From Candidatus Yanofskybacteria bacterium (GTDB lineage: Bacteria > Patescibacteriota > Minisyncoccia > 2-02-FULL-40-12 > GWA2-44-9), in assembly GCA_003151795.1 (NCBI GenBank), contig PLYL01000005.1, positions 1,011 to 65,010 of the forward strand: a stretch of DNA of 64,000 nt, in the 5' to 3' direction. The notes beneath the pieces are model-generated. The model worked only from the letters and a program-made list of their open reading frames with translations. It was not told the origin of the DNA and ran no database searches. Both the position numbers and the translations under genes were made by a program. This document shows, piece after piece, positions 3,217-61,883 of this stretch (position 1 is its first letter; the number at the start of each line of letters is the position of its first letter).

Positions 3217-3606
3217 ATGAAACCAGACTATTTCGTGTCCCTGAAGCATTACTACGGGGATATCGTCCGGAAACTCTTTTTTGCCGCCGCGATTTTAATG
3301 CTCGCCAGCCTGCCGTTTTTCAGCGACCGTCTGCCGGTTTCAACGATTGACTCTCTGGTAATCATCGTGGCGATTGGATTTTTCGCCGGTTTAACCAATC
3401 CGGTCGAACCGTTTCCAGCGATTATCAATACTCTCACTTCCGGCGTGGCGGTGGTAATTTTTGAATATTACGCGGTTCTGACCTATCAATTAAATTCAGC
3501 CAGTGACCCCTTGTTTTTGGCCGATCAAGCGCTCGCTATTATTTTCCTGTTCGCGCTGTATTATGGAACCAAGACTTTGCGGGCGATGATGATTGATAAA
3601 AATTAA
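3217..3606 (+). CDS. Hypothetical membrane protein (129 aa)
   Basis: Multiple predicted TM helices. The stop codon abuts the left arm of IR element 1. Confidence 0.45.
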   Translation: MKPDYFVSLKHYYGDIVRKLFFAAAILMLASLPFFSDRLPVSTIDSLVIIVAIGFFAGLTNPVEPFPAIINTLTSGVAVVIFEYYAVLTYQLNSASDPLFLADQALAIIFLFALYYGTKTLRAMMIDKN

Positions 3607-3744
3607 TCCCGCACATAACAGCCATATGCAGTAGATAGTGCGGAATTAGTTAAATTAACAAGACAGACCATACGACAAGCTCATTGCGTGGACTTAAGTA
3701 AAAAGTACTGCCCGAGAGCACTAGATGGCTGTTATGTGCGGGAT
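3606..3744. repeat. IR-element copy 1: perfect 20-bp inverted repeat (ATCCCGCACATAACAGCCAT / ATGGCTGTTATGTGCGGGAT), 99-bp spacer
   Basis: Arms at 3606-3625 and 3725-3744. The right arm overlaps the ATGAATAAA start of the DoxX gene. Confidence 0.8.
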
Positions 3745-4177
3745 GAATAAATTCCAAAGAATTTCGTTGCTTCTTCTGCGGGTCAGTCTCGGGTGGATGT
3801 ATTTTTGGGCGGGGATTACCAAAGTGGTTGACCCGGCCTGGTCGGCGGCCGGGTATTTGCAAGGGGCTAAAACCTTTCCGGCTCTTTTCCACTGGTTTGC
3901 TTCGCCCGCCTTACTGCCCCTCACTAATTTCGTAAATGAGTGGGGTTTGACCCTGTTGGGAGTTTCGCTAATTCTTGGTTTAGGCGTTCGCTGGACGGCC
4001 CCATTCGGGATTGCGCTCATGGTCTTATATTATCTCCCGATTCTTCAATTCCCATACCCGAATGTCAATTCATTTATCGTTGACGAGCATTTCATTTATG
4101 TCTGCGGACTTATCGTCCTCCTGGCGTTCAACGCGGGTAAATTTTGGGGGATGGATAGACGCGTCAGTCGCGCTTAA
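3743..4177 (+). CDS. DoxX-family membrane protein
   Basis: RISLLLLRVSLGWMYFWAGITK fits the DoxX signature. Start placed at ATGAATAAA (MNKFQ...). Confidence 0.65.
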   Translation: MNKFQRISLLLLRVSLGWMYFWAGITKVVDPAWSAAGYLQGAKTFPALFHWFASPALLPLTNFVNEWGLTLLGVSLILGLGVRWTAPFGIALMVLYYLPILQFPYPNVNSFIVDEHFIYVCGLIVLLAFNAGKFWGMDRRVSRA

Positions 4178-5400: not shown

Positions 5401-6417
5401 GTCTTCTTGTTTTTCTTTTAGTTCTTTGAGGGTGGCTTGGAATTCAGCTTTGGCTTTTTGGGATAAAGTCGCGATATTACTTTTTATGTGGTTGCGCCAT
5501 TTTGTCGTCGCGGCTTTGGCTTCAGTGATGCTAAAATCGGAGATTAAAATTTGTTTGCCGGCGACGTAGGTCACGAATCCGCCGACAAGCAGTATTATAA
5601 TGGCAAAACTTATGGCCACGCTCGCGATAATAATCTCACGTTTTTTTACGTCCGGCTTGCCTGCAAGCTTAGTGATGTCTTTCGCGCGATGATCAATCAC
5701 GGGTCTGTCTTTTAGTTTTTTAAAATATATCGTTCCCAAATAGTTTCTGCCATACTTAACAGCCATAGTAAACATGCCTTCAGCAGCCAAGCGCCGGCCG
5801 GAAGCGAACATAGGGAGTTTGCGGGTGAATTTTACATCCCCAATGGCATGGAGCCGGCGGGCAATATCCGCGTCCTCGCCCCAAAATTCTATCGCGGTGT
5901 CATAGCCGCCGATTTTTTCAAGGCCCGCTCGGGTAATAATAAAATTTCCACCTTGGAGCATCGAGCCTTTTCTCAAAATAAAACGATTAATGAAATAGAC
6001 GACGTAGCCTATACTATAGAAAGCGTTGACAAAGTGGCCAGTTTTTTTAGGAAGGTCGTAGTATTTAAAAGGCCCGCTTAAGCCGACTAGGTTGGGATTT
6101 TGGGAAAATTCCGCGAAGACTGTGTCGAGCCAGCCCGGGGTGAGAATGGTGTCCGAATCAACGTTGGCGATTAATTCGCCCGAAGAGGCGAGATAACCCG
6201 CCCGGCGCGCCCAGACCAGGCCTTTGTGCGGTTCGTCGACGACTTTGACATTGGGATATGACCGTGCAATTTCCCCGGTTCGGTCGGTGCTGGCATTATT
6301 GACGACGATAATCTCTACCCGGTCCAGGTATTTCTGGGCTTGCGCGCACACTGAATCGAGGCACTTCTGGATGTGTCCTTCTTCATTATAGGCCGGGATT
6401 ACGAAGCTTAGTTTCAT
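5398..6417 (-). CDS. Family 2 glycosyltransferase with C-terminal TM anchor
   Basis: MKLSFVIPAYNEE...VVNNASTDRT GT2 motifs; DSD motif. Confidence 0.75.
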   Translation of the reverse strand: MKLSFVIPAYNEEGHIQKCLDSVCAQAQKYLDRVEIIVVNNASTDRTGEIARSYPNVKVVDEPHKGLVWARRAGYLASSGELIANVDSDTILTPGWLDTVFAEFSQNPNLVGLSGPFKYYDLPKKTGHFVNAFYSIGYVVYFINRFILRKGSMLQGGNFIITRAGLEKIGGYDTAIEFWGEDADIARRLHAIGDVKFTRKLPMFASGRRLAAEGMFTMAVKYGRNYLGTIYFKKLKDRPVIDHRAKDITKLAGKPDVKKREIIIASVAISFAIIILLVGGFVTYVAGKQILISDFSITEAKAATTKWRNHIKSNIATLSQKAKAEFQATLKELKEKQED

Positions 6418-12078: not shown

Positions 12079-12087
12079 AAATTAATC

Positions 12088-12116
12088 AAAAAATCGCCTC
12101 GAGGCGATTTTTTGAT
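12088..12116. terminator. Bidirectional intrinsic terminator (aaaaatcgcctcgaggcgatttttt)
   Basis: Palindromic 9-bp stem flanked by an A-run and a T-run. It serves the convergent genes on both strands. Confidence 0.7.
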
Positions 12117-12126
12117 TTTCTGATAG

Positions 12127-13490: not shown

Positions 13491-14138
13491 ATGAAAAGAG
13501 CTTTTGTTTTTATTGATGGTAGCAATCTTTACTACCGGCTTAAGGGTATCGCCGGATTTTATATGAAAGAAAATGGCAAGGATTACAGTATGAGCCATTT
13601 TAAGTTTAAGGAGTTTTGTAAATGGCTGGTAGGCGACAACGGTCTACAAGAAATTCATTATTATATTGGTCAAATTAAGCGACCCAATCCTCAATCAAAA
13701 AATTCTCAAAAAGCAGAACAGATGTATTCGAGTCAGCAAAGACTGGCAGGCTACTTACAGGCTCAAGGGATAGTTATGAAGTTTGGGAAGCTTATGAGAG
13801 ATCCGAGCCGTCCTGATGTGTACCATGAAAAAGGTGTTGATGTGCAAATTGCTGTAGAAATGATTAGATTCGCTCGTCAGGATAAGTATGACATTGCTTA
13901 TTTGATAAGTTCAGATACTGATTTAGTTCCAGCAGTTCAAGAAGTGAAGGACCTTGGAAAAGAAGTTGTCTATGCTGGAGTTAAATTAATTCCTATAGGA
14001 GATACTAATAATACAAAAAAGAAAAACGTATTTGGCATTTCCTATGGCTTACTCGGTACCGCAAGCGATGTTAAGTTAATTGAAAAAGAGGATATAAAAC
14101 CATTTTTAGTATTACGAGAGGATACTCAAGTTAAGTAG
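13491..14138 (+). CDS. NYN/LabA-like (PIN-fold) domain protein, AT-rich
   Basis: FIDGSNLYY, KGVDVQIAVEM and SSDTDLVPAV are NYN-domain acidic catalytic motifs. About 37% GC. Start set at MKRAFVF. Confidence 0.65.
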   Translation: MKRAFVFIDGSNLYYRLKGIAGFYMKENGKDYSMSHFKFKEFCKWLVGDNGLQEIHYYIGQIKRPNPQSKNSQKAEQMYSSQQRLAGYLQAQGIVMKFGKLMRDPSRPDVYHEKGVDVQIAVEMIRFARQDKYDIAYLISSDTDLVPAVQEVKDLGKEVVYAGVKLIPIGDTNNTKKKNVFGISYGLLGTASDVKLIEKEDIKPFLVLREDTQVK

Positions 14139-14160
14139 GACGCTTATATATTATTAAGGT

Positions 14161-14430
14161 TTGATTTACTTTATCTACCTTCTCAAATGCGCGGACGGCA
14201 GTCTCTACTGCGGGATTACGACTGATGTGGAGCGGAGGCTTAGAGAGCATCGGGCGGGGAAGGGCGGGAATTACACGCGAGCGCATAGGGCGGTAAAGAT
14301 GGTATATATAGAGAGGTGCAAGGATAGGTCGAGCGCTTTGAAGCGGGAAGCGGAGATTAAACGGCTATTACGAGCGGATAAACTCAAGTTAATTAAACAC
14401 CCGCCAAAATTTTATGGAAACAAAACTTAG
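14161..14430 (+). CDS. GIY-YIG nuclease superfamily protein (YhbQ/UPF0213-like)
   Basis: IYLLKCADGSLYCGITTDVERRLREH are GIY-YIG core motifs (GIY ... YIG-like, R, E). Confidence 0.75.
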   Translation: MIYFIYLLKCADGSLYCGITTDVERRLREHRAGKGGNYTRAHRAVKMVYIERCKDRSSALKREAEIKRLLRADKLKLIKHPPKFYGNKT

Positions 14431-23568: not shown

Positions 23569-24282
23569 ATGATTAAATGTACGGATATCGAAAAAATTTA
23601 CCACGATGGCGGCGATCCCACCGTGGCTCTGAAGAATATTTCTTTTACGATTGAGAAAGGCGAGTTCGTGGCCATTATCGGGCCGTCCGGTTCGGGCAAA
23701 TCAACCCTGATGCATATTCTGGGCGCGCTCGATTCTCCGACCAACGGCATTTATGAGCTCGATGGCAAAAACGTTTCAGCGCTGTCGGAAGAACAGCTGG
23801 CCGATATCAGAAAAAAGAAAATAGGATTTGTGTTTCAGTCGTTTAATCTGTTGCCTCGGGCGACAGTGCTGCGCAACGTCGCTCTGCCGCTGGTGTACGC
23901 CGACGTTCCGGAAGAAGAACGCCTGGCACGTGCCCGCCAAGCCTTGTTGAGCGCCGGCATGGATGAATCAAGGTTCGACCATCTTTCCAACCAATTATCG
24001 GGCGGCCAGATGCAAAGAGTCGCCATCGCCCGCGCCCTGGTGAATGACCCGGCCCTGATTTTGGCCGACGAGCCGACCGGAAATTTGGATTCCAGAACCG
24101 GCGAAATTGTGCTCGACACGTTTCAAAGGCTGAACCGGGAACTGGGGCGCACGATTATTTTGATTACGCACGAGCCGTACGTCGCCGAACACGCCGACCG
24201 CATTATCACGGTCAAAGACGGGATGATTACCAGCGACGTCAAAAATTTGCATAAACGAATCATCAATCACCATGACGCTTAA
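23569..24282 (+). CDS. ABC transporter ATP-binding protein (MacB-type, paralog)
   Basis: [34 protein letters not shown]. Confidence 0.85.
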
Positions 24283-25495
24283 AGATTTATTTCAAGAGAC
24301 TTTTTCCGCGATTACGGTCAATAAAGTCCGGTCCGGCTTGACCGTGCTCGGGATTGTCATCGGCATCGCCTCGGTCATCGGTTTGGTCTCCATCGGCCAA
24401 GGCGCCCAAAATAGCATCTCCGCCAGCATCCAATCAATCGGCTCGAATCTGATTATTGTCACGCCGGGCGCCGCGCGCGGGGCGGGCGTGCAGTTCAGCG
24501 CCGGCCGGGGCAGCGCCCAAACGCTGACCCAAGCCGATGCCGACGCGATTAAAGCTACCGTAACTGAAGTCGCGGGCATCGCGCCCGAAGTTTCCCGCCG
24601 CTACCAAGTCATCGCCGGCGGGCTGAATACGAACACGAGCGTCATCGGCACCGTGGCGGATTATACCAATGTCCATAATTTTCAAATGGATGAAGGGTCA
24701 TTCATCACTGACCAGCAGGTCCAAAGCGTCGCCAAAGTGGCCGTGCTCGGCCCGACGACGCGAGACGATTTATTCGGCGTCGGTTCGGAAGCGCTCGGCC
24801 AGAAAATTAAAATCAACAAAATAGAATTTACCGTCATCGGCACGACAATTGCCAAAGGCGGTTCCGGTTTCACGAATCCGGACGACGCAATTTATGTCCC
24901 AATCTCGACCGCCCAGCATTATCTGGCCGGCGGGAATTACGTGACGGGGATTGATTTGTCGGCGGTGAGCCAGCCGGCGATGGTTGACGTCCAAAATCAG
25001 GTTACTAGTTTATTGCTCCAGCGCCATAATATTTCCGATCCGACCCTGGCTGATTTCAGCGTCATGAACCAGAATGACATTACTTCGGCCGCGTCCAGCA
25101 TCACTAACACCTTTACCCTTCTTCTGGCCGCCATCGCCGGTATTTCGCTCGTCGTCGGCGGAATCGGCATCATGAACATGATGCTCACGAGCGTCACCGA
25201 ACGGACGCGTGAAATCGGCTTGCGCAAAGCCATCGGCGCGACGCCGAAAGATATTTCTCTCCAATTTTTAACCGAATCAGTGATGCTGACATTTTTCGGC
25301 GGGGCCATCGGCGTTGCCATCGGCTGGGGTATTTCCCTTCTCGCCGGCCATTTCTTGAGCCTGAATACTTCCGTAACATTATCTTCCGTCGCACTGGCTT
25401 TTGGCGTTTCGGCCGGTATCGGGATTGTTTTCGGTTATTACCCTTCGCGTCGTGCCGCCGGTCTTAATCCCATTGAGGCATTGCGTTACGAATAA
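24272..25495 (+). CDS. ABC transporter permease, FtsX/MacB family (paralog)
   Basis: ERTREIGLRKAIGA motif and 4-TM topology. The ATPase stop overlaps its start. Confidence 0.8.
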   Translation: MTLKDLFQETFSAITVNKVRSGLTVLGIVIGIASVIGLVSIGQGAQNSISASIQSIGSNLIIVTPGAARGAGVQFSAGRGSAQTLTQADADAIKATVTEVAGIAPEVSRRYQVIAGGLNTNTSVIGTVADYTNVHNFQMDEGSFITDQQVQSVAKVAVLGPTTRDDLFGVGSEALGQKIKINKIEFTVIGTTIAKGGSGFTNPDDAIYVPISTAQHYLAGGNYVTGIDLSAVSQPAMVDVQNQVTSLLLQRHNISDPTLADFSVMNQNDITSAASSITNTFTLLLAAIAGISLVVGGIGIMNMMLTSVTERTREIGLRKAIGATPKDISLQFLTESVMLTFFGGAIGVAIGWGISLLAGHFLSLNTSVTLSSVALAFGVSAGIGIVFGYYPSRRAAGLNPIEALRYE

Positions 25496-25632
25496 TCCCG
25501 CACATAACGAGCAGAAGTCTCTGTTGTGGGCGATGGTTAAAGTTTTATAAAATAATTTTTCGGGCACTAGGATATTGGTTCTGGCTATATATGTAGCGAG
25601 ACCAGAAGCCCACTGCTCGTTATGTGCGGGAT
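25496..25632. repeat. IR-element copy 2: perfect 20-bp inverted repeat (ATCCCGCACATAACGAGCAG / CTGCTCGTTATGTGCGGGAT), 97-bp spacer
   Basis: The left arm starts right after the permease stop codon. The right arm ends in the ATGAATAAA start of the next gene. Confidence 0.8.
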
Positions 25633-26041
25633 GAATAAAAACATAGCGATAGTATTGATGGTTGTATTCGCGGGAGCGGGATTTTATGGCGGGATGAAGT
25701 ATCAGCAAGGTCAAACTCCGGATCGCGGTACGGGCACGTTTGCCGGCCGCACGGGCGGGACAGGCCGTGGCGGCGTCGCTTTCAACGGCACCTTCGGGCA
25801 AGTCATCGCCAAGACCGCTACGACCATCACGGTTCAGTTGGCGGACGGCAGTTCGCGTATTGTCTTTATATCCGCGACGACTCCCGTAGCGAAGCAGGCG
25901 TCCGGCACCTTGAATGACGTCGCCGTCGGCACCAATATCGCCGTGACGGGCACGAGCAACAGCGATGGCAGTGTCACCGCGTCTCAAATTCAAATCCGTC
26001 CCGCCGGCACGCCCCGTCCCAGTCCCTCGCCGACGCCGTAA
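25631..26041 (+). CDS. Small secreted Gly/Thr-rich protein (136 aa)
   Basis: Start at MNKNIAIVLMVVFAGAGF (signal/TM), then G/T-rich beta-like sequence and a PSPSPTP tail. Confidence 0.5.
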   Translation: MNKNIAIVLMVVFAGAGFYGGMKYQQGQTPDRGTGTFAGRTGGTGRGGVAFNGTFGQVIAKTATTITVQLADGSSRIVFISATTPVAKQASGTLNDVAVGTNIAVTGTSNSDGSVTASQIQIRPAGTPRPSPSPTP

Positions 26042-26051
26042 TTTTAACCCG

Positions 26052-26105
26052 TTCAAGATCTCGCCCGCTTTGAGCGGTCGTAGACCTTGGGCGAGGAATC
26101 TTGAA
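26052..26105. promoter_or_regulatory. Operator-like nested inverted repeat (ttcaagatctcgccc ... gggcgaggaatcttgaa) abutting the promoter -35
   Basis: 15/17-bp imperfect IR with a 22-nt spacer containing a second small hairpin (ccgctttgagcgg). It ends 6 nt before TTGACT. Confidence 0.45.
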
Positions 26106-26110
26106 TCGGG

Positions 26111-26138
26111 TTGACTTTTTCTTGAGAAGGCCTAGAAT
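26111..26138 (+). promoter_or_regulatory. Sigma70-like promoter TTGACT-N16-TAGAAT
   Basis: -35 at 26111-26116 and -10 at 26133-26138. An AGGAGG SD and an ATG follow 30 nt downstream. Confidence 0.55.
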
Positions 26139-26169
26139 CTAACCCATTGTACTTTAGGAGGATTGAGTC

Positions 26170-26289
26170 ATGGATTGTCCGTATTGTAATGGTTCTGGAA
26201 AGAAAACCTTCTTTGTGTTCTTTGAACTGGACTGTGGTAGATGCAGTGGCACTGGCCAGAAGCTGGACATGACCCCCAGTCAAACGTGA
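26170..26289 (+). CDS. 39-aa zinc-ribbon mini-protein with two CxxCxGxG motifs (MDCPYCNGSGKKTFFVFFELDCGRCSGTGQKLDMTPSQT)
   Basis: Strong SD (aggagg, 8-nt spacing), ATG, and two DnaJ-like CxxCxGxG repeats. Below ORF-track cutoff. It may instead be part of an ncRNA. Confidence 0.35.
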   Translation: MDCPYCNGSGKKTFFVFFELDCGRCSGTGQKLDMTPSQT

Positions 26290-26439
26290 TCCCAATGATC
26301 ACGTGCCGAGCAAGAAAGAAACCCGCGCGGCCGAAAACATCGAGGTTCCGGCGAACCGGAAATCCAGGCTCATCCCGGGTGTCAAAACCGACTCCAAGCA
26401 CAACATGTAGCACTGGCGAGTTCTGTCCAGGGATGAAGT

Positions 26440-26474
26440 GGCGGCGCGTTCAACGCGCCGCCTTTACTTTTTCC
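26440..26474 (+). terminator. GC-clamp hairpin (ggcggcgcg-ttcaa-cgcgccgcc) followed by tttactttttcc
   Basis: Perfect 9-bp all-GC stem with a 5-nt loop and a T-rich tail, 50 nt upstream of the RT start. Confidence 0.6.
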
Positions 26475-26524
26475 TCCCGAGTTTTATGATGCCCCAGGCC
26501 TAAACTTCTTTAAATTACAACAGA

Positions 26525-27844
26525 ATGATTGATTTTGATAATTTTCAGCAAATAATAGATAGAAAATTTTGGAGATGTATTACGAGAGACACCCTATGTC
26601 CAGTTGGGGAGCAGTCTAAAGATAAATTGCTTCGCATCCTCTATGATTCAATTGTGGATAAGACTTATTATCCATCTCCACCCCGAGAGTACCTTGTGAG
26701 CCATAAATCACAGAAAGTAGCCAGAATAGTTCCAGTTTTTGAAATAAAAGATTATTGTCTGTATTATTTTTGTGTAAAGCGACTTGAAGATTTTTTGACT
26801 AAAGAGCGAACCCCTAATACTTTTGGTGGATGGAGATTGAGTAATAATTTTAGTGAATTAGAACGACAAGAATTAGAGCGAAGATATCCTTATGTCGATC
26901 CCGAGTATTTTTCAGAAGGCTCTTTTAATCCATTGGCCTGGGTTAAATTCTGGGGTGAATTTACGGCTTTATTATACTCAACCCTAGAGCGAGAACAGGA
27001 GGGGTTTATTGTTGAGTTTGATATATCTAATTTTTATGATTGCGTAAGACTGGATATTCTAGAGAATAATATTAGGTCAGTATCTCCTGCAGAGTTACAA
27101 TTTGAAGTTAGTTTGCTTATGCATTTTTTAAAATACTGGAATAGGAAATTTAATTCCTATCACCCACAATCTGCAGGGATACCTCAAGACGAATCCCAAG
27201 ATTGTTCTAGAATTTTGGCTAATTTTTATCTCCAGGCCTATGATAAAAAGATCAACAGGTTATGTTCTGGAATGGGAGCTAGATATTTCAGATATGCAGA
27301 TGATCAAGTTATATTTGCAGAGAATAAATTAGTAGCCGGTAGACTCTTGTTTGAGGCGTCAAAAGAGTTATCTAAAATTGGTTTGAACATTAATACCAGT
27401 AAAGTTAAAGAGTTTAGTTCAAAGAAAGACTACGCAAACTTTTGGTCGTTCGACATACATCAAAATTTAGGCAGGAAAGATATAAAAAATGCTTTTGCAA
27501 TCTGGAAGGATAGAAAAGATAAAATAGATGGGTTCCGCAATTACCCATCTATTATTAAAAGATTTATTAGTAACGACCTTTCTGTACTGGATTTAAATGA
27601 GTACAATATGATTATGACTGAAGCTCTGTCTCGTGAGATGTATTCAGTCTATGATTCTCGCCAGCTAAAAAAGATATATTTGAAATTACACGAGGATGAA
27701 AAGAGAAAATTTATTAACGAGCTAAATCAAACGGCAAAAGTTTTTCCTTTTAATAAATTTCATTTTATCCTTAAGAAATTTTTTAGTGAATTTGGCTTTG
27801 ATTGTTCTGATTTAGACTTAAAAATTAATGAATTAAGGCTTTAG
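26525..27844 (+). CDS. Reverse transcriptase (orphan, YADD catalytic motif; retron/DRT/UG-like, not intron-associated)
   Basis: RT motifs PSPPREY..IVPVFEIKD (1/2), FIVEFDISNFYDCV (A/3), GIPQDESQDCSRILANFYL (B'/4), RYFRYADDQVIFAEN (C/5), ELSKIGLNINTSKVKEF (D/E/6-7). About 33% GC island. No maturase X, endonuclease or other fused effector domain. Confidence 0.8.
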   Translation: MIDFDNFQQIIDRKFWRCITRDTLCPVGEQSKDKLLRILYDSIVDKTYYPSPPREYLVSHKSQKVARIVPVFEIKDYCLYYFCVKRLEDFLTKERTPNTFGGWRLSNNFSELERQELERRYPYVDPEYFSEGSFNPLAWVKFWGEFTALLYSTLEREQEGFIVEFDISNFYDCVRLDILENNIRSVSPAELQFEVSLLMHFLKYWNRKFNSYHPQSAGIPQDESQDCSRILANFYLQAYDKKINRLCSGMGARYFRYADDQVIFAENKLVAGRLLFEASKELSKIGLNINTSKVKEFSSKKDYANFWSFDIHQNLGRKDIKNAFAIWKDRKDKIDGFRNYPSIIKRFISNDLSVLDLNEYNMIMTEALSREMYSVYDSRQLKKIYLKLHEDEKRKFINELNQTAKVFPFNKFHFILKKFFSEFGFDCSDLDLKINELRL

Positions 27845-33361: not shown

Positions 33362-33412
33362 CTTTTACATATTATAGCGTATTAACAAAATAGATAGTAT
33401 GTGGATTATCCA

Positions 33413-33477
33413 CCCCGCATATAACTGTCAGCATTTTTGTCTGGACCTTGCGGGTCAACTGACAGTTATGTGCGGGG
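33413..33477. repeat. IR-element copy 3: 19-bp inverted repeat (CCCCGCATATAACTGTCAG / CTGACAGTTATGTGCGGGG, 1 mismatch), 27-bp spacer
   Basis: Same core CCCGCA(C/T)ATAAC...GTTATGTGCGGG as copies 1 and 2. It lies 70 nt upstream of the 33551 gene. Confidence 0.7.
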
Positions 33478-33550
33478 TCCACCCCGAGTATAAAATAAGA
33501 TTGCAACGTAGCAGGTCGTCAGTCCGTATCCATGTGATATACTAAAACGG

Positions 33551-36677: not shown

Positions 36678-37991
36678 ATGAAGCGTCAACCCCGTAATAC
36701 AACTTCGATTAGCTCGGCCAAAGCCGAGCATGTTCGGTCAAAAATCGGAGTTGATATACGGGGTCAAGATACTCAAAAAACTGTCTATGTCGGCATGTCC
36801 CCGAAGCAATCGCTGCGCGATGCTACGGGGCAGGCGCGCGGAGTTAAGTCTGCGGTTGTTTATGTTGGTATGTCCGGGGGTGTAGATTCTTCCGTGGCCG
36901 CGGCCTTGCTGAAGAAGCAGGAATTTAAGGTGGTCGGGGTTTTTATGAAACCGTGGCAACCAGGCGAAGGAACAATGAGCAATGAACAAGGAACAAAAAA
37001 AAGAGTTTCAGGGGTACCTGCTCATGGTTCATTGTTCAATGATCATTGTCTCTGGAAGCAAGACCGCGAAGATGCGATGCGCTCGGCCGTGGCCATCGGG
37101 ATTCCATTGCTGACTTGGGATTTTTCCAAAGAATATAAAAAGTTAGTGACGGATTATATGATTCGCGAGTACAAAGCCGGTCGGACGCCGAATCCCGACG
37201 TGATGTGCAATAAAGAAATTAAATTCGGATTATTTTTGAAACGCGCTTTGAAAGAAGGGGCGGATTTCATCGCGACGGGACACTACGTGCGTTTAAGAAA
37301 CAATGAACAGGGAGCAATGAACAGGAAACATGTTCATTGCTCCCTGTTCATTGCTCATGATTTAAATAAAGACCAGTCTTATTTTTTGTGGACGCTGACG
37401 CAAGAGCAATTAAAATATTGTCTATTTCCGGTTGGAGAGTATATCAAGCCCGAAGTCCGGAAGCTGGCCAAGAAATTTAAACTGCCGAATCACGCCAAAA
37501 AAGACAGCCAGGGCGTGTGCTTCATTGGGCCGTTAGATATGAAAGAATTTTTACTCACGTATATCAAACCCAGGAAAGGCAGGATCATTTTAATGAGTGG
37601 GCAAGGAAACCTGCCTGCCGGCAGGCAGGTTGGGACTCACGACGGCGTCTATTATTACACTATTGGCCAACGCCACGGACTGGACATCAAAGACGGCGGC
37701 GGGCCATACTATGTCGTCGCCAAAGATATCAAGAAAAATATTATCTATGTCGGTACCGATGCTCAAGCCGTTACGCAAAATACCAAAGTTGAAGAATTTA
37801 ATTGGCTAAATCGGCCATCTTTGCCAACACGTCTGGATGTCAAAGTCCGTTACCGGACGAAGTCGGTTAAAGCTGTACTGGATAAAAAAGGCGTTTTAAA
37901 ATTTGAAAAACCGGAGCGCGCCGTTACCTCCGGCCAGTCCGCAGTTTTCTATCGGGGGAAAGAATTGCTTGGCGGCGGGATTATTGTATGA
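36678..37991 (+). CDS. mnmA: tRNA 2-thiouridylase MnmA, with three in-frame palindromic insertions and an N-terminal extension
   Basis: PP-loop SGGVDSS, Cys motifs, and C-terminal GQRHGLDI...GGG. About 70 aa longer than typical MnmA. The true start may be internal (MSPKQ / VVYVGMSGG). Confidence 0.8.
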   Translation: MKRQPRNTTSISSAKAEHVRSKIGVDIRGQDTQKTVYVGMSPKQSLRDATGQARGVKSAVVYVGMSGGVDSSVAAALLKKQEFKVVGVFMKPWQPGEGTMSNEQGTKKRVSGVPAHGSLFNDHCLWKQDREDAMRSAVAIGIPLLTWDFSKEYKKLVTDYMIREYKAGRTPNPDVMCNKEIKFGLFLKRALKEGADFIATGHYVRLRNNEQGAMNRKHVHCSLFIAHDLNKDQSYFLWTLTQEQLKYCLFPVGEYIKPEVRKLAKKFKLPNHAKKDSQGVCFIGPLDMKEFLLTYIKPRKGRIILMSGQGNLPAGRQVGTHDGVYYYTIGQRHGLDIKDGGGPYYVVAKDIKKNIIYVGTDAQAVTQNTKVEEFNWLNRPSLPTRLDVKVRYRTKSVKAVLDKKGVLKFEKPERAVTSGQSAVFYRGKELLGGGIIV

Positions 37992-43180: not shown

Positions 43181-43213
43181 TCAGTTGACGTATCGGATCC
43201 GATATATCAATTC

Positions 43214-43238
43214 AAAAACCGCGTAGCACGCGGTTTTT
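43214..43238. terminator. Bidirectional intrinsic terminator (aaaaaccgcg-tagca-cgcggttttt)
   Basis: Hairpin flanked by A-run and T-run between the convergent hup and rarA genes. Confidence 0.7.
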
Positions 43239-43241
43239 GAA

Positions 43242-44378
43242 TTATTCTTTGAGATATTTCTTGTCTTTCAATTTTTCGGGCAAGAGGTCTTCTTTGGGAT
43301 AGCGAGTGTAGCCTTTGCCATAATCCAATTCTTTCATGAGTTTGGTAACGGGGTTGCGAATCATCAAGGGAATGGGCAAGTTGCCGTATTTTTTCACGTC
43401 GGCGAGGGCTTCCTGATAGGCTTCATATGATCTTTTGCCTTTTGGACATTTACAAAGATAGGCGACGCCATGGGCGAGATTGATGCCGGCTTCGGGCATG
43501 CCGATGGCGTCGACGGCCTGAAAGACGGCGTTGGCGAGGACGAGGGCTTGCGGGTCTTTTAATCCAATATCTTCTGACGCGAAGATAACCATGCGGCGGG
43601 CGATAAATTTCGGATCTTCGCCGGCTTCGACCATCCGGGCGAGATAATAGAGGGCGGCGTCGGGCTGGCTGGCGCGCATGCTTTTGATGAACGCACTGAT
43701 GGTGTTGTAATGCTCTTCGCCCTTTTTGTCGTAGCGGAGAAATTTAGACTGAAGGGTATTTTTTAAATTTTCAATAGTGATGGCGCCGTAGAGCCGATTG
43801 GTATTTTCCAACATCGTAATGGCTTGGCGGGCATCGCCGCCGGCCATCGAGATGAGCCAGTCGCCGGCGTCTTTCGGAATTTTGAATCCCGTGCGTTTGA
43901 GAATCGCGCACATATCTTCCTCATTGAGTTCTTCTAAAACAAAGACTCGACAGCGGGAAAGGAGGGCGGGGATGACTTCAAAACTGGGATTCTCGGTCGT
44001 GGCGCCGATGAGCGTGAGCTTGCCGGATTCCACGAAGGGTAGAAGATAATCCTGCTGGGCTTTATTGAAGCGGTGAATCTCGTCGAGAAAGAGAATTTTA
44101 GGCCCGAATAGCCCCTCCGCGGACTCGACTATTTTGCGGATATCTTCTTTGCCCGCCGAAACCGCCGACAGTTCGTGATAATCGGCTTTCAGGGCGTTGG
44201 CGTAAATCCGGCCCAGGGTTGTCTTGCCAACTCCCGGCGGTCCCCAGAGAATAAAAGAGAAAAGATGTTTTTTATCGATGGCAATCGCGAGCGGTTTATC
44301 CGGGCCGACCAAATGCCGCTGGCCCATGAATTCGGACAGTTCTTTCGGTCTGATTTGGACGGCAAGAGGTTCTGGCAT
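43242..44378 (-). CDS. rarA: Replication-associated recombination protein RarA/MgsA (AAA+ ATPase)
   Basis: Walker A GPPGVGKTT, Walker B ILFLDEIHRF, sensor motifs; about 380 aa (no N-terminal Zn finger). Confidence 0.8.
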   Translation of the reverse strand: MPEPLAVQIRPKELSEFMGQRHLVGPDKPLAIAIDKKHLFSFILWGPPGVGKTTLGRIYANALKADYHELSAVSAGKEDIRKIVESAEGLFGPKILFLDEIHRFNKAQQDYLLPFVESGKLTLIGATTENPSFEVIPALLSRCRVFVLEELNEEDMCAILKRTGFKIPKDAGDWLISMAGGDARQAITMLENTNRLYGAITIENLKNTLQSKFLRYDKKGEEHYNTISAFIKSMRASQPDAALYYLARMVEAGEDPKFIARRMVIFASEDIGLKDPQALVLANAVFQAVDAIGMPEAGINLAHGVAYLCKCPKGKRSYEAYQEALADVKKYGNLPIPLMIRNPVTKLMKELDYGKGYTRYPKEDLLPEKLKDKKYLKE

Positions 44379-58553: not shown

Positions 58554-58931
58554 CTAGGGCGCGGCGATTTCCGTGCTCGTCTTCTTGATCGTATTTTTGG
58601 GAAAGTACTTGGTACCGATGTGGCGGACCAGCGCCATCTTTTGAGGACTTCTCGCGGGAAGTTCCTCGTACAATTTCATCGCGCCCGAGAGCCCCGATGG
58701 ATGTTCCTTCAACTTGGTCTGGATTGCCTCATCCGCTTCCGTGTCTGCCTGCTTAAAGGCAATTTCAACGCTGACGATGTCGATTCCAGTTCTTCGGTAC
58801 ATCCACCCTGTATCAACCTCTGTGTGCATGTAAGCCCCCAGTAAAGATTGTACAAAAATATTATTTTTGGTCAATGGGCCGCCAGCGCCAGGGAAGCCCA
58901 ATTTATTTTTAAAAATGATATAATCAGGCAT
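58554..58931 (-). CDS. Hypothetical protein (125 aa). Its start codon overlaps the divergent helicase start.
   Basis: ORF only. ATG overlaps the + strand ATG by 2 nt, so one of the two starts may be misassigned. Confidence 0.3.
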   Translation of the reverse strand: MPDYIIFKNKLGFPGAGGPLTKNNIFVQSLLGAYMHTEVDTGWMYRRTGIDIVSVEIAFKQADTEADEAIQTKLKEHPSGLSGAMKLYEELPARSPQKMALVRHIGTKYFPKNTIKKTSTEIAAP

Positions 58932-61836
58932 GGATTTTAAGGAAGCCTATAAGCAACTCAATCCGGAGCAGAAGAAAGCCGTCGACGCGATTGAAGGGCC
59001 GGTGATGGTTGTCGCGGGACCGGGGACGGGCAAGACGCAGATTTTGGTTTTGCGAATCGCCAATATTTTATTAAAGACTGATACGCCCGCAAGCGGAATT
59101 TTAGCCTTAACATTTACTGAAGCCGGGGCAAAAGAAATGAAACGGCGCGTGCGAGAAATAATCGGTTCGCGGGCCGATGAAGTCCGAGTCCATACCTATC
59201 ATGGCTTTGCGGCTTCGGTCATCGCTGAATTTCCAGAGCATTTTCCTCATCTTTCCCGGACTAAGCAATTAACAGACATCGAGACAGAATCGATGGTGCG
59301 CGATATTTTGAAAGAAAAAAGATTCGCGCCTTTGCGTCCGTACGGCGAGCCCGATTTGTACGTCGGTAAAATTATCGGCGCCATCGCTGATTCTAAAAAA
59401 GAAGCTTGGACTCCGGACATGGTTGCCAGTTTCGCCGCGGATGAAATTAAGCGAATTGAAAATGATGAAGATTCAATTTCTAGCCGCGGGCCAACCAAGG
59501 GCAAATTAAAAGCCGAGGCTTTGAAACGGATTGAGAAATGCGAACGCACGTTATTATTCGCCGAAGTCTACCGGGTCTATGAATCTCGCAAAAGAACGGA
59601 AAGGATGATGGATTTTGAAGATTTAATTTTTGAACTCATTACCGCACTGAAGAAAGACGAACTCCTGCTTCGTCTATTGCAAGAGAAATATTTATATATC
59701 TTAGTCGATGAGCATCAAGACACGAATGACGCTCAAAACGCGCTCATCCGTTTAATTGCCGATTTCTTCGAAACGCCCAACTTGTTTGTCGTCGGTGACG
59801 AGAAGCAGGCGATTTATCGTTTTCAAGGCGCTTCGGTTGAGAATTTTTTAAAGTTCCAAAGTATTTGGCAGTCGATGAAAGTGATCCCTCTTAGGGAGAA
59901 CTATCGCTCGCACCAGAGTATTCTAGACGCCACATTCGCGATGATCGAGCGCAACTACGACGAAGGCGAGCATGTTGATTTGCGCGTGCGTTTGAAATCA
60001 GCCAACGGCCAGCCCTCCAAACCGCTCGATGTCGTGCACGCCGGCAATGCCGAAGCCGGCGACGAGTATCTAGTAAAAGAATTAGCAAAAATAAAAAAAG
60101 GCACGGTGGCGATAATTGTCCGCCGCAACCGAGATATCCCGCGATTATTGAGTTTGTGCGAAGAACATGGGATTCAAGCTTCAGCCGAAAGAGGAACGGA
60201 TATTTTTTCGCATCCGGTCGGTTCTTTATTTTTCAGTCTTATTGAGTTTTTAGCGGATACTGGCCAGACCGAAGCTTTGGCCCAAACCATTGCCGGCGGT
60301 TTATGGAAGCTGACTCTTGAAAAATCCGCTAGCTTAATCCGAGCGATTCGGAGCGGAACTTTGCGGGACATTGAACGCGATCTTCCTGAATTAAAGAAGC
60401 TAGCGAATGAAATTACCCATGCCGGTTCAGTCGCGTATCTCACGCTGGCCGGCCAGATGAGCGGTTTAACCGGCCTTTCGGCAAGCGAACCTTTAGCCGC
60501 TGAAGTTTGGCACGCGATTATTGCGCTGGCCCAGCACCTGGCCCGGTCGCATGGTCTCGCCGATGACCCGCGCGCTTTGATTAAATTATTGCTGGAATAT
60601 CGAACTTCCGCTGAAAAAAAGACTATTAAAATCAGTACGGGTTCGCCCGAGGCTCGGGTAAAGATTATGACCGCTCACGGCTCTAAAGGGCTTGAATTTG
60701 ATTATGTATTTTTACCGTACGCGACCGAAGAAGCGTGGTTGCCTCGAGTTCGAGGATCTTATTTTGTTTTGCCCCGCGGCAAAGAAGAAGGCGATGAAAT
60801 TCGCGACTCGCGCCGTTTGTTTTATGTCGCGCTTACCCGGGCTAAAAAACATGTCTCTATTATTGCTCCTCTTCAAGAAGGTTTAGACACGGCCCTGACG
60901 CCGCTTCGCTTCTTGAGCGAGCTTGACCCAAACCACATTTCAAAAATAAATATCCCCGCTGTTGAAGTTCATCTCGGTACTGCTTCGCTTGAAAGCCGCC
61001 AGTCGAGCCGTCGGACTGAAACTATCGAATACGCTAAATCCATCCTTTTGGAGAAAGGCCTTTCCGTTACCGCTTTAAATCATTTTTGCGATTGTCCAAG
61101 AAAGTTTTTCTATAAAAGCATTTTAAAACTGCCGGAACCGCCGAGCGCGAATGCCGAAAAAGGCAACGCCATGCACGAAGCATTAGCGCGGGTTTGGCAT
61201 TTAAAAGATAAAAGCCAAGAAAAAATTTCAAAGACAATAATTGAATCAGTCAGTGCGTATTTCAACGCCTCCTTGCTGCCGTCATTTGAAAAAGAGCCCT
61301 TGCTTGAAGATTTGATTGAGACTGCGCCGATTGTTGCCGCAGCTTTGAAAGCTCATGTAAATCAGTTGGGTACGATTATGACGGAGACGTGGACGGAAAG
61401 ACTTTACGAAGGCGAATATCAAAAGACGGCCGTCCCTTTGCTATTGCATGGCAAACTCGATGCGGTTCTTGAAACAGCCGCGGATGTCTTGGTCTTTGAT
61501 TACAAAACTCGCGAAGCGATGAGCGAGAATGCTATCAAAGGCCAGACAAAAGACAGCGATGGAAATTATTTCCGCCAGCTGGTTTTTTATAAGATGCTAC
61601 TTGAAAATAAATCAAAATATAAAAACAAAACAATTCAGCCAGCGCTTGTATTTTTAAAACCTGATGCCAAAGGCCAATGTAAAATTATTTCTCTGCCAGT
61701 TTCCGCTGAAGATATCCGGACTGTCGAAGGGGAAATTCAAACCCTCATCACCAGTGTCTGGTCAGGCAATTTCCTTACCGACACCTGTGATGATAAAGAT
61801 TGTGAGTTTTGCGCTCTGCGGAAACTCATACAATGA
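58930..61836 (+). CDS. UvrD/PcrA-type SF1 helicase fused to C-terminal PD-(D/E)xK (Cas4/AddB-like, Cys-cluster) nuclease
   Basis: Helicase motifs I (AGPGTGKT), II (ILVDEHQDTN), Q-motif. C-terminal FCDCPRK...LDAVLE...VFDYKT...CDDKDCEFC matches the RecB-family nuclease with a 4-Cys cluster. Confidence 0.8.
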   Translation: MDFKEAYKQLNPEQKKAVDAIEGPVMVVAGPGTGKTQILVLRIANILLKTDTPASGILALTFTEAGAKEMKRRVREIIGSRADEVRVHTYHGFAASVIAEFPEHFPHLSRTKQLTDIETESMVRDILKEKRFAPLRPYGEPDLYVGKIIGAIADSKKEAWTPDMVASFAADEIKRIENDEDSISSRGPTKGKLKAEALKRIEKCERTLLFAEVYRVYESRKRTERMMDFEDLIFELITALKKDELLLRLLQEKYLYILVDEHQDTNDAQNALIRLIADFFETPNLFVVGDEKQAIYRFQGASVENFLKFQSIWQSMKVIPLRENYRSHQSILDATFAMIERNYDEGEHVDLRVRLKSANGQPSKPLDVVHAGNAEAGDEYLVKELAKIKKGTVAIIVRRNRDIPRLLSLCEEHGIQASAERGTDIFSHPVGSLFFSLIEFLADTGQTEALAQTIAGGLWKLTLEKSASLIRAIRSGTLRDIERDLPELKKLANEITHAGSVAYLTLAGQMSGLTGLSASEPLAAEVWHAIIALAQHLARSHGLADDPRALIKLLLEYRTSAEKKTIKISTGSPEARVKIMTAHGSKGLEFDYVFLPYATEEAWLPRVRGSYFVLPRGKEEGDEIRDSRRLFYVALTRAKKHVSIIAPLQEGLDTALTPLRFLSELDPNHISKINIPAVEVHLGTASLESRQSSRRTETIEYAKSILLEKGLSVTALNHFCDCPRKFFYKSILKLPEPPSANAEKGNAMHEALARVWHLKDKSQEKISKTIIESVSAYFNASLLPSFEKEPLLEDLIETAPIVAAALKAHVNQLGTIMTETWTERLYEGEYQKTAVPLLLHGKLDAVLETAADVLVFDYKTREAMSENAIKGQTKDSDGNYFRQLVFYKMLLENKSKYKNKTIQPALVFLKPDAKGQCKIISLPVSAEDIRTVEGEIQTLITSVWSGNFLTDTCDDKDCEFCALRKLIQ

Positions 61837-61841
61837 TCTGG

Positions 61842-61883
61842 AGTTGTCATATGAACATATGCGCATATGTTCATATGACAACT
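61842..61883. repeat. Perfect 42-bp palindrome AGTTGTCATATGAACATATGC|GCATATGTTCATATGACAACT
   Basis: Read directly. It begins 6 nt after the helicase-nuclease stop, contains three CATATG cores, and has no flanking T-run. Confidence 0.9.

Follow-up and report, generated by a model that had tools for sequence, protein, structure and literature searches.

We analyzed three short hairpin elements in a 64,000-nucleotide stretch of Candidatus Yanofskybacteria DNA (hereafter the window), which makes up most of a 65.8-kb metagenome contig from an organism of the candidate phyla radiation (CPR) type. Each element consists of two facing copies of a common core, and two of the three lie between the stop codon of one gene and the start codon of the next. 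We conclude that the three copies are probably non-autonomous members of a superfamily of small hairpin transposable elements of CPR bacteria (Patescibacteria), comparable to miniature inverted-repeat transposable elements (MITEs). The family is mobile; many of its members duplicate their target, and they hold characteristic positions and orientations relative to genes.

Three hairpin elements in the window

The 12-nt core (CCCGCAYATAAC/GTTATRTGCGGG) has six matches in the window against 0.47 expected, and none of 100 shuffles reached six. All six CCCGCAYATAAC core matches form facing pairs, giving the three inverted-repeat pairs that an earlier note on this DNA had described. Copy 1 (class I, subfamily A, AGCCAT; the classes are defined below) occupies positions 3607 to 3743 on the forward strand and reads T-CCCGCACATAAC...GTTATGTGCGGG-A. 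Its 20-bp stem arms, at 3606 to 3625 and 3725 to 3744 on the same strand, are perfect (24 nt at 96%) and enclose a 99-nt spacer; the right arm holds an in-frame ATG that gene callers use. Copy 2 (class I, GAGCAG subfamily) lies at 25496 to 25631, also on the forward strand, with perfect 20-bp arms at 25495 to 25514 and 25613 to 25632 and a spacer of 98 nt. Copy 3 (class II, 65 nt), to which we assign no strand, spans 33413 to 33477 in a divergent promoter region and reads C-CCCGCATATAAC...GTTATGTGCGGG-G. Its arms (33412 to 33431 and 33459 to 33478) are 20 nt long with one T/G position, stand 27 nt apart, and are accompanied by a target-site duplication, TCCA, at 33409 to 33412 on the left and 33478 to 33481 on the right, likewise without strand. 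The coordinates first reported for copy 1 were correct, whereas the left arm and the spacer of copy 2 had each been off by one. All three copies are predicted to fold much more stably than shuffled sequences (z = -6.9, -8.5 and -7.0 for copies 1, 2 and 3).

The left arms of copies 1 and 2 begin at the final A of an upstream TAA, which closes open reading frames (ORFs) at 3217 to 3606 and 24272 to 25495, respectively. In copy 1, the terminal T of the element directly follows this TAA, the right arm ends on the AT of the ATG of a DoxX gene (3743 to 4177), and the terminal A of the element is the A of that start codon. Copy 2 lies between the TAA of a MacB-like gene and the ATG of a gene for a DUF5666-like small protein (25631 to 26041), with its right arm again ending on the AT of the ATG. 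These ORF positions agree with the arrangement given in the earlier note, in which both elements run from the last base of the stop codon to the downstream ATG.

We note that DoxX and other genes are called from ATGs within the right arm (window 3725 to 3745 and 25622 to 25633; proteins P0001, P0009, P0010 and P0025). The false N-termini that result, MAVMCGM or MCGM, are present in public protein sets and could be used as a tag to find further copies. The elements would thereby be a source of systematic start-codon mis-annotation in CPR genomes.

Across the window, no Rfam model reached its gathering score, and copies 1 and 2 drew nothing beyond chance-level hits when E was relaxed to 10. Consensus scans of the spacers of copies 1 and 2 found neither promoters, on both strands, nor terminators, and no sense-strand terminator-like site was seen at the copies. 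With loops of 27 to 99 nt and an ATG directly after, the elements do not resemble intrinsic terminators, and the sense strand carries no T run at the copies, so an earlier suggestion that they are terminator-like finds no support.

A family with two classes and conserved interiors

A search for two exact cores 56 to 116 nt apart returned 33 loci in species-representative genomes and 69 loci in metagenomes, comprising 91 non-identical copies once duplicates were removed. The family had initially been taken as genome-specific, and the earlier note had named as grounds for rejection that only these three copies might exist, with no conservation in related genomes; approximately 100 loci elsewhere, mostly in CPR genomes and metagenomes, contradict both. 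Genome hosts were Yanofskybacteria, Saccharibacteria, Nomurabacteria, Sungiibacteriota, Paceibacterota, and a few metagenome-assembled genomes (MAGs) labelled otherwise. Viral contigs, plasmids and phages gave no paired-core match. Nearly every arm was paired at short range, and there were almost no solo arms. As a separate observation, at least nine class II copies are spread over several contigs of one MAG labelled Gammaproteobacteria, binchicken_co125_790 (loci L004, L016, L019, L024, L025 and L034); either the label of this MAG is doubtful or the family reaches beyond CPR bacteria.

The element unit is Y-CCCGC...GCGGG-R, and its copies fall into two classes. Class I elements are 126 to 138 nt long (a few are about 85 nt), have a 20-bp stem and T...A ends, and are flanked as ...AT[core...core]ATG. 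Class II elements are 63 to 123 nt long, have AT-rich interiors and C...G ends, and are flanked as ...AC[core...core]GT. Elements of both classes thus span 63 to 138 nt and contain no conserved ORF, and the short upstream ORFs within them differ among subfamilies. Their paired ends measure 18 to 20 bp, of which the outer 13 nt are common to the family. These dimensions, below the MITE limit of about 300 nt, the paired ends and the lack of coding capacity are those of a MITE.

Class I interiors form subfamilies that are conserved between genomes. The subfamily of copy 1, AGCCAT, is found in several Yanofskybacteria, and a counterpart of copy 1 at the same DoxX junction in locus L106 has an interior identity of 87%; the nearest relative of copy 2, L037, has an interior identity of 71%. 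The spacers of copies 1 and 2 therefore differ because the two belong to different subfamilies, not because spacers are free to vary. This qualifies the earlier note, which called the spacers unrelated in sequence and, in one of its options, took the terminal repeats as the only conserved part: interiors within subfamilies are 70 to 95% identical across genomes and keep one orientation relative to the gene.

In almost every class I copy the stem is 20 bp long and is made of 2 flank-derived, 12 core and 6 variable pairs. The six inner pairs show compensatory changes both between and within subfamilies (AAAGAC/GTCTTT, AAAGAT/ATCTTT, AAAGAG/CTCTTT, GAGCAG/CTGCTC and TTGCGC/GCGCAA), which indicates that the element ends are kept able to pair, something that a transposase binding two separate double-stranded ends would have no need of. 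Subfamily A interiors have, in addition, two candidate long-range helices in a pseudoknot-like arrangement with five covarying pairs; RNAalifold prefers partly different local hairpins for this subfamily, and these covary likewise. The asymmetry of G-U versus A-C on the sense strand of the 20-bp stem is 6 to 3, too few events to separate selection at the RNA level from selection at the DNA level.

Target duplications, a nested copy and empty sites

For counting target duplications, one further base on either side was assigned to the element, T and A in class I and C and G in class II. So defined, 22 of 49 class I copies lie between exact direct repeats of 4 nt, with a 5-nt repeat in four more; in class II, 7 of 29 copies do so, compared with 0.8 expected. 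The duplicated sequences, in many copies TGAA, TGGA, TTGA or TCAA, are mostly of the form TNNA. Locus L059, which reads GTGAAT[E]ATGAAG (with [E] standing for the element), is informative about the boundary: the native GTG start is left of the element, and the right-hand start is now ATG, so the A before the right-hand duplication must be the element's last base. Variant hairpin families with the same outer ends and other inner arms (CCCGCACCTTTT... and CCCGCCGTTGAG...) show exact duplications of TTGA, TAAA or TCAA in most copies. In one nested case, an 80-nt copy lies inside the loop of a 221-nt copy and has its own duplication.

We found sites without the element for copies 1, 2 and 3 and for other loci, as expected of MITEs. 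The closest relative, which comes from the same sample and shares 31 kb of synteny with the same gene order at 85 to 90% amino acid identity, is without all three window copies. At the copy 1 site (L104 and L109), this relative reads TAA-ACATATATTA-ATG and another relative reads TAA-ATTTAAACTAA-ATG. The copy 2 site holds a 28-nt AT-rich spacer in the closest relative (L107) and a 23-nt spacer in another relative (L108). The copy 3 motif is absent from the syntenic region of L107, where the intergenic region is too diverged for alignment. Conversely, the start (ATGGAT) of a UvrD-like helicase gene in the window, at 58930 to 58935 on the forward strand and behind a TGATATAAT box, is an unoccupied target: in L015/L074, a subfamily A element is present at the orthologous helicase start (ATGGAAT[E]ATGGAATTC). 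The infA-rpmJ junction is empty in L074 and filled in L005 and L043, and the long, unrelated spacers of L111 and L113 are at most loose empty sites. We note that these two spacers (L113:1213-1293 and L111:1213-1283, Yanofskybacteria-like) are short tandem repeats (CTAGTCG... and CAGCG...), and that rpmJ of L113 apparently starts at ATT. The duplications, the nested insertion, presence and absence at orthologous sites, and the roughly 100 copies elsewhere make the MITE-like option the closest of those that the earlier note had listed.

Two other accounts of the ends were considered and rejected. A 2-bp AT duplication would need pre-existing ATGA-ATGA tandems at at least 25 loci and would break downstream reading frames. 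A Xer/dif half-site is suggested by a match of the arms to the Escherichia coli XerC arm at 8 of 11 bases, but no second half-site is common across subfamilies.

Insertion positions and host signals

Class I elements stand against genes. An ATG immediately follows the right arm in about 40 of 49 copies and is the start of a real ORF (37 to 996 codons). Copies usable for closer analysis were of three kinds: (i) 27 duplication-type copies, which read ATGAA-T[E]A-TGAA and similar; (ii) 8 stop-type copies (TAA-T[E]ATG), in all 8 of which the TAA is the true stop of an ORF of 97 to 422 codons; and (iii) 6 that are neither. A -10-like hexamer lies 5 to 8 nt before the left ATG in 14 of the 27 duplication-type copies, compared with 10% for random ATGs. 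The downstream genes are unrelated to one another and include those for a helicase, L36, DoxX, transporters and many others. Among informative class I copies, the interior is in the sense orientation relative to the gene in 36 and in the opposite orientation in none, and the symmetric ends of the element do not explain such fixed orientation.

The window genome has TATAAT/TATACT boxes 6 to 7 nt before many ATGs, short TAA...ATG operon junctions, and essentially no Shine-Dalgarno sequences, which together indicate that window genes are leaderless or translationally coupled. Leaderless mRNAs, together with reinitiation from stop to start codon, appear to be the rule in this organism. Boxes of the form TGnTATAAT/TATACT ending 5 to 7 nt before the ATG are seen, for example, at 6417 (reverse strand), 33551 (forward), 39935 and 44378 (both reverse) and 58930 (forward), with Shine-Dalgarno sequences almost absent.

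Class II and variant copies lie at other signals. Four of six TTGA duplications that we checked fall in the -35 boxes of plausible promoters, two of which are canonical TTGAC[A/T]-16/17-TATAAT (TTGACT-17-TATAAT in L102 and TTGACA-16-TATAAT in L029), and the duplication keeps the box on the gene side. Further class II copies lie within 23S rRNA genes, where a helix tip is replaced at a helix-25-like site, and within an RNase P RNA gene (L010:3644-3745, L095:10484-10579, L012:1065-1163 and L060:1502-1601). Others stand just upstream of the 23S 5' end (L010a, L089 and L052) or in the 23S-5S spacer (L023).

On our preferred reading, the element inserts with a 4-bp target duplication, mostly of TNNA, and its ends pair into an 18- to 20-bp stem. 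Class I elements survive only directly ahead of genes and only in the sense orientation. At leaderless genes, where insertion is at A|TGAA, duplication of TGAA or TGGA leaves the native promoter, the transcription start and the first ATG on the left, and the last A of the element plus the duplicated TG rebuilds the start codon on the right; in operons, the element lies exactly between stop and start codon. Class II elements and variants occupy promoter regions and helices of 23S rRNA or RNase P RNA, with the TTGA duplication rebuilding the -35 box. In compact genomes, only insertions preserving a promoter, a start codon or an RNA fold would survive, and the insert would be nearly silent. Perhaps copies persist where a self-contained RNA hairpin is harmless, its stem rejoining the two flanks. 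For copies 1 and 2, a ribosome stopping at UAA could open the lower stem and reinitiate at the AUG across the stem base. Stop-start coupling by an RNA stem is a plausible consequence of the element at these two junctions, since UAA and AUG stand right at its two ends and the organism lacks Shine-Dalgarno sites.

Longer elements enclosing a GIY-YIG gene

Two longer elements enclose a gene between ends of the same kind. The first, L093:8396-8684, is 289 nt long; its arms (CCCGCACATAAACACTAT) match the core at 11 of 12 positions, and its loop is filled by an 84-amino-acid GIY-YIG ORF. A 256-codon ORF precedes it and a 215-amino-acid ORF follows, in the arrangement TAA-T[E]ATG and in the sense orientation, exactly as for copies 1 and 2; it lies approximately 700 nt from a subfamily A copy. 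In the second, L029:6204-6501, the GIY-YIG ORF lies between perfect 20-nt arms (ACCCCGCACCTTTTTAGGAT), and the duplication is TTGA. The enclosed ORFs encode 84 to 86 amino acids and match PF01541 (E = 2e-12 in L093 and 7e-17 in L029), and short ORF-less copies with matching ends occur in the same genomes as both. NCBIfam assigns no family to these CPR GIY-YIG proteins, whose best solved relatives are the UPF0213 proteins 1zg2 and 1ywl.

From these longer elements with the same ends we infer that the family may be mobilised in trans by a small single-domain GIY-YIG nuclease recognising a single-stranded DNA hairpin, by analogy with the Ssn nucleases discussed below; we consider this part of the reading slightly less likely than not. 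A hairpin serving as the single-stranded substrate of such a nuclease would account for both the maintained pairing of the ends and a strand or orientation bias. A protein-binding palindrome had been offered earlier together with the terminator, and the GIY-YIG link would fit such a palindrome if a nuclease recognises the hairpin.

The window has its own single-domain GIY-YIG nuclease ORF at 14161 to 14430 on the forward strand (PF01541, E = 2.3e-20), with a TTG start. A link between this gene and the three copies is possible on the sequence. It also looks like a separately mobile, free-standing nuclease gene. A direct repeat of approximately 28 nt (TATTACGAG.GGATA.ACTCAAGTTAA) flanks the ORF within 14100 to 14430 and is a duplicate of the 3' end of the NYN-domain gene that lies upstream. 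The fetched loci hold further small GIY-YIG genes, whose flanks differ from the element ends. Some adjoin or lie within tRNA genes, with part of the tRNA duplicated on both sides (L027:91-315, L062:3027-3251 and L034:7432-7998), and the insertion in L034 consists of two tandem copies.

Alternative explanations

Several observations weigh against a family of transposable elements moved by a GIY-YIG nuclease, and we gather them here. The search pattern, with its exact cores and limited spacing, biases the sample in diversity and in length distribution. Duplications are missing from copies 1 and 2 and from the six further stop-type copies; set against four empty alleles, the element takes the place of a 10- to 28-nt spacer exactly from stop to start, an outcome not expected of simple cut-and-paste insertion. 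An element occupies the DoxX junction in the window and in relatives at 70 to 74% amino acid identity, and the junction is empty in relatives at 82 to 90%, which implies either repeated insertion at one site or losses that restored the spacer. Possible routes to spacer replacement are insertion followed by a selected deletion, two nearby insertions with recombination between them, and a mechanism other than simple cut-and-paste. Interiors at orthologous loci are 87 to 90% conserved compared with 72 to 85% for flanking coding DNA, and this could mean a host function rather than selfish persistence. As for the enzyme, we found two independent GIY-YIG-bearing elements only, and the window GIY-YIG ORF, although of the same protein type as those in L093 and L029, is without CCCGCAC-ended arms. 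There is no transposase or integrase gene among window ORFs of at least 110 amino acids. Strand transfer is not a known activity of GIY-YIG nucleases, and the GIY-YIG ORF could be cargo.

Conservation above that of the flanking genes is one of the features that would suit a cis-regulatory RNA of the host, that is, a leader or coupling hairpin that evolved for control of exported or membrane protein genes and is not selfish. The fixed sense orientation (36:0), the position exactly against the start codon, the compensatory changes in the stem with two further candidate helices, and the occupation of the same junction in distant DoxX orthologues point the same way. Nonetheless, the genes downstream are unrelated, the 4-nt duplications and the nested copy speak of insertion, class II relatives lie in rRNA and RNase P genes, the nearest relative manages without all three copies, and no Rfam family matches. 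We therefore consider such an RNA distinctly improbable, and an RNA stem coupling stop and start, which the earlier note had put first, is excluded as the origin of the element. A less remote competitor, but still an unlikely one, takes the elements as ordinary MITEs of a conventional DDE insertion sequence (for example, one with CC ends and 4- to 5-bp duplications) and the GIY-YIG ORFs as passengers. It would explain the terminal inverted repeats, the fixed 4-bp duplication, the small size and the many copies, and these genomes also contain GIY-YIG genes that move independently, between other flanks. What it leaves unexplained is that approximately 700 kb of fetched loci hold no transposase gene bounded by element ends, that the arms are all paired at short range (the GIY-YIG elements excepted), and that compensatory changes keep the ends complementary where a transposase binding double strands has no need of it; an absolute orientation bias is also unusual for DDE MITEs.

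Two further readings involve site-specific recombination. Integron-type attC sites, or relics of them, come to mind because ACATAAC and GTTATGT are each one base off RYYYAAC and GTTRRRY (the R''/R' boxes) and because the sites lie between a stop codon and the next gene. Moreover, a high-GC metagenome contig (L069:640-4930) bears five same-orientation sites (CCCGCACATAACGGCACATAT...) with the same 12-nt core and bulged, imperfect stems, which follow unrelated accessory ORFs (O-methyltransferase, ABM monooxygenase and sigma factor); by its sequence, this locus looks like an integron cassette array whose attC sites have the same 12-nt core. The window copies differ: they are 8 to 22 kb apart and form no array, gene order is unchanged in relatives without them, and the window yielded no integrase among ORFs of at least 110 amino acids. 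Class I stems are perfect over 20 bp with no extrahelical bases, and IntI recombination does not produce 4-nt duplications or a nested copy. The attC reading of the window copies is contradicted by these features, and we give it very little credence. Least credible of all are invertible promoter switches (invertons), in which a site-specific recombinase flips a promoter segment upstream of surface protein genes. Consensus inverted repeats around segments of approximately 100 nt directly upstream of genes, some of them for exported proteins, do recall such switches. However, none of 36 informative copies is flipped, orthologous pairs included, the spacers of copies 1 and 2 contain no sigma-70-like promoter on either strand, there is no recombinase gene in the window, and the arms of copy 3 are merely 27 nt apart; the 36:0 orientation and the lack of a promoter-like site inside copies 1 and 2 contradict this reading directly.

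We thus return to small hairpin transposable elements as the preferred reading. If the GIY-YIG link were also true, these would be the first transposons with a stand-alone, Ssn-like GIY-YIG single-strand nuclease as mobiliser, and a new class of hairpin-ended insertion sequences of approximately 300 nt, with abundant ORF-less derivatives, TNNA sites and a signal-restoring mode of insertion; we regard this stronger claim as doubtful. The preferred reading would show how a mobile element lives in compact genomes with almost no intergenic DNA, by hitting signals, rebuilding them and folding tolerably, and the hairpin would have to be tolerated by mRNAs, rRNA and RNase P RNA. The elements would also offer a natural system for studying translation of leaderless mRNAs and translation by reinitiation in organisms that are not culturable alone.

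Other features of the window

Just downstream of copy 2, a low-GC (38%) island at 26053 to 27844 carries a reverse-transcriptase gene (RVT_1, 439 amino acids, YADD motif) with approximately 470 nt of non-coding DNA ahead of it. The island is an insertion, since the closest relative runs from the small protein gene straight to an M23 peptidase gene. We considered the reverse transcriptase as a partner of the element and rejected it: none of the other copies has a homologue of it nearby, and the relative is without the island. Other perfect palindromes of 16 to 23 bp, unrelated to the element, lie at 37301 to 37353, 61842 to 61883, 12084 to 12117 and 43209 to 43243; the first of these is within a repetitive, AATGAACA-rich stretch (36967 to 37358).

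Comparison with known systems

Bacterial MITEs such as the Correia elements of Neisseria are approximately 100 to 150 nt long, with terminal inverted repeats, a short TA duplication and a DDE transposase as partner. Like Correia-type MITEs, the present elements lie near gene starts and can recreate promoter elements at the junction, and Correia elements are likewise co-transcribed as hairpins. They differ in sequence, in a 4-bp duplication instead of TA, in their strictly sense orientation, and in a candidate partner that is GIY-YIG and not DDE; unlike in Correia elements, a start codon or -35 box is rebuilt from the element end and the duplication. A second likeness is to the intervening sequences of 23S rRNA, as an extended stem-loop takes the place of helix tips in 23S rRNA and RNase P RNA where class II copies are inserted, but here the inserts come from a dispersed family that is also found in promoters and at mRNA starts, with duplications. 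The likeness to integron attC sites, which are imperfect palindromes, is superficial: there too, AAC...GTT core boxes lie in a palindrome that follows a stop codon and precedes the next gene.

Repetitive extragenic palindromic (REP) sequences and REPINs with their RAYT (Y1 HUH) transposases, and the palindrome-associated transposable elements (PATEs) of IS200/IS605, are dispersed hairpin repeats believed to move in single-stranded form through the action of a small nuclease. Common to REP/REPIN systems and the present family are a nuclease gene flanked by the same repeats and an orientation bias. In contrast, we saw no HUH/Y1 gene and no GTAG-type 5' motif here, and elements of the REP and IS200 type make no target duplication. 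Both systems are discussed by Chenal et al. 2025 (PMC11893778), whose work on Ssn provides one of the closest parallels.

Ssn are single-domain GIY-YIG proteins that bind a single-stranded DNA hairpin repeat and cut beside it on one strand (PMC11893778). Their genes are typically flanked by the hairpin repeat, which is also dispersed in hundreds of copies, and Chenal et al. likened the arrangement NTS-ssnA-NTS to an insertion sequence (PMC11893778). In the Ssn systems (NTS/SRM; dRS3 and NIME of Neisseria; PMC11893778) as in the present family, a single-domain GIY-YIG protein of approximately 85 to 95 amino acids is bracketed by inverted hairpin repeats, and ORF-less copies of the repeat are many, dispersed and mostly outside genes. 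A repeat flanks the GIY-YIG gene on both sides in L093 and L029, but not in the case of the window gene. The hairpin foot is similar as well: Neisseria NTS reads ATTCCCGCG...CGCGGGAAT, compared with A(A/T)TCCCGCAC...GTGCGGGAT in the present family (foot ATCCCGCAC). The published SRM pattern (HGTCWY..YYVSBRH..WNVSBRG..RNCYNB) had 0 matches in the window, versus 0.42 in shuffles. The halves of the present elements are 27 to 111 nt apart or enclose an ORF, whereas Ssn genes have a 20- to 50-nt hairpin on each side. To date, what is known of the Ssn pairing is a site-specific single-strand DNase and an unexplained gene architecture resembling an insertion sequence; neither duplications nor transposition are reported in PMC11893778, and CPR bacteria go unmentioned there. 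Unlike that account, the present family has 4-nt duplications, nested copies and empty sites, that is, transposition. If the GIY-YIG link holds, the pairing of an Ssn nuclease with a hairpin repeat would gain a concrete life cycle, in which duplications, nested insertions and empty sites point to real transposition.

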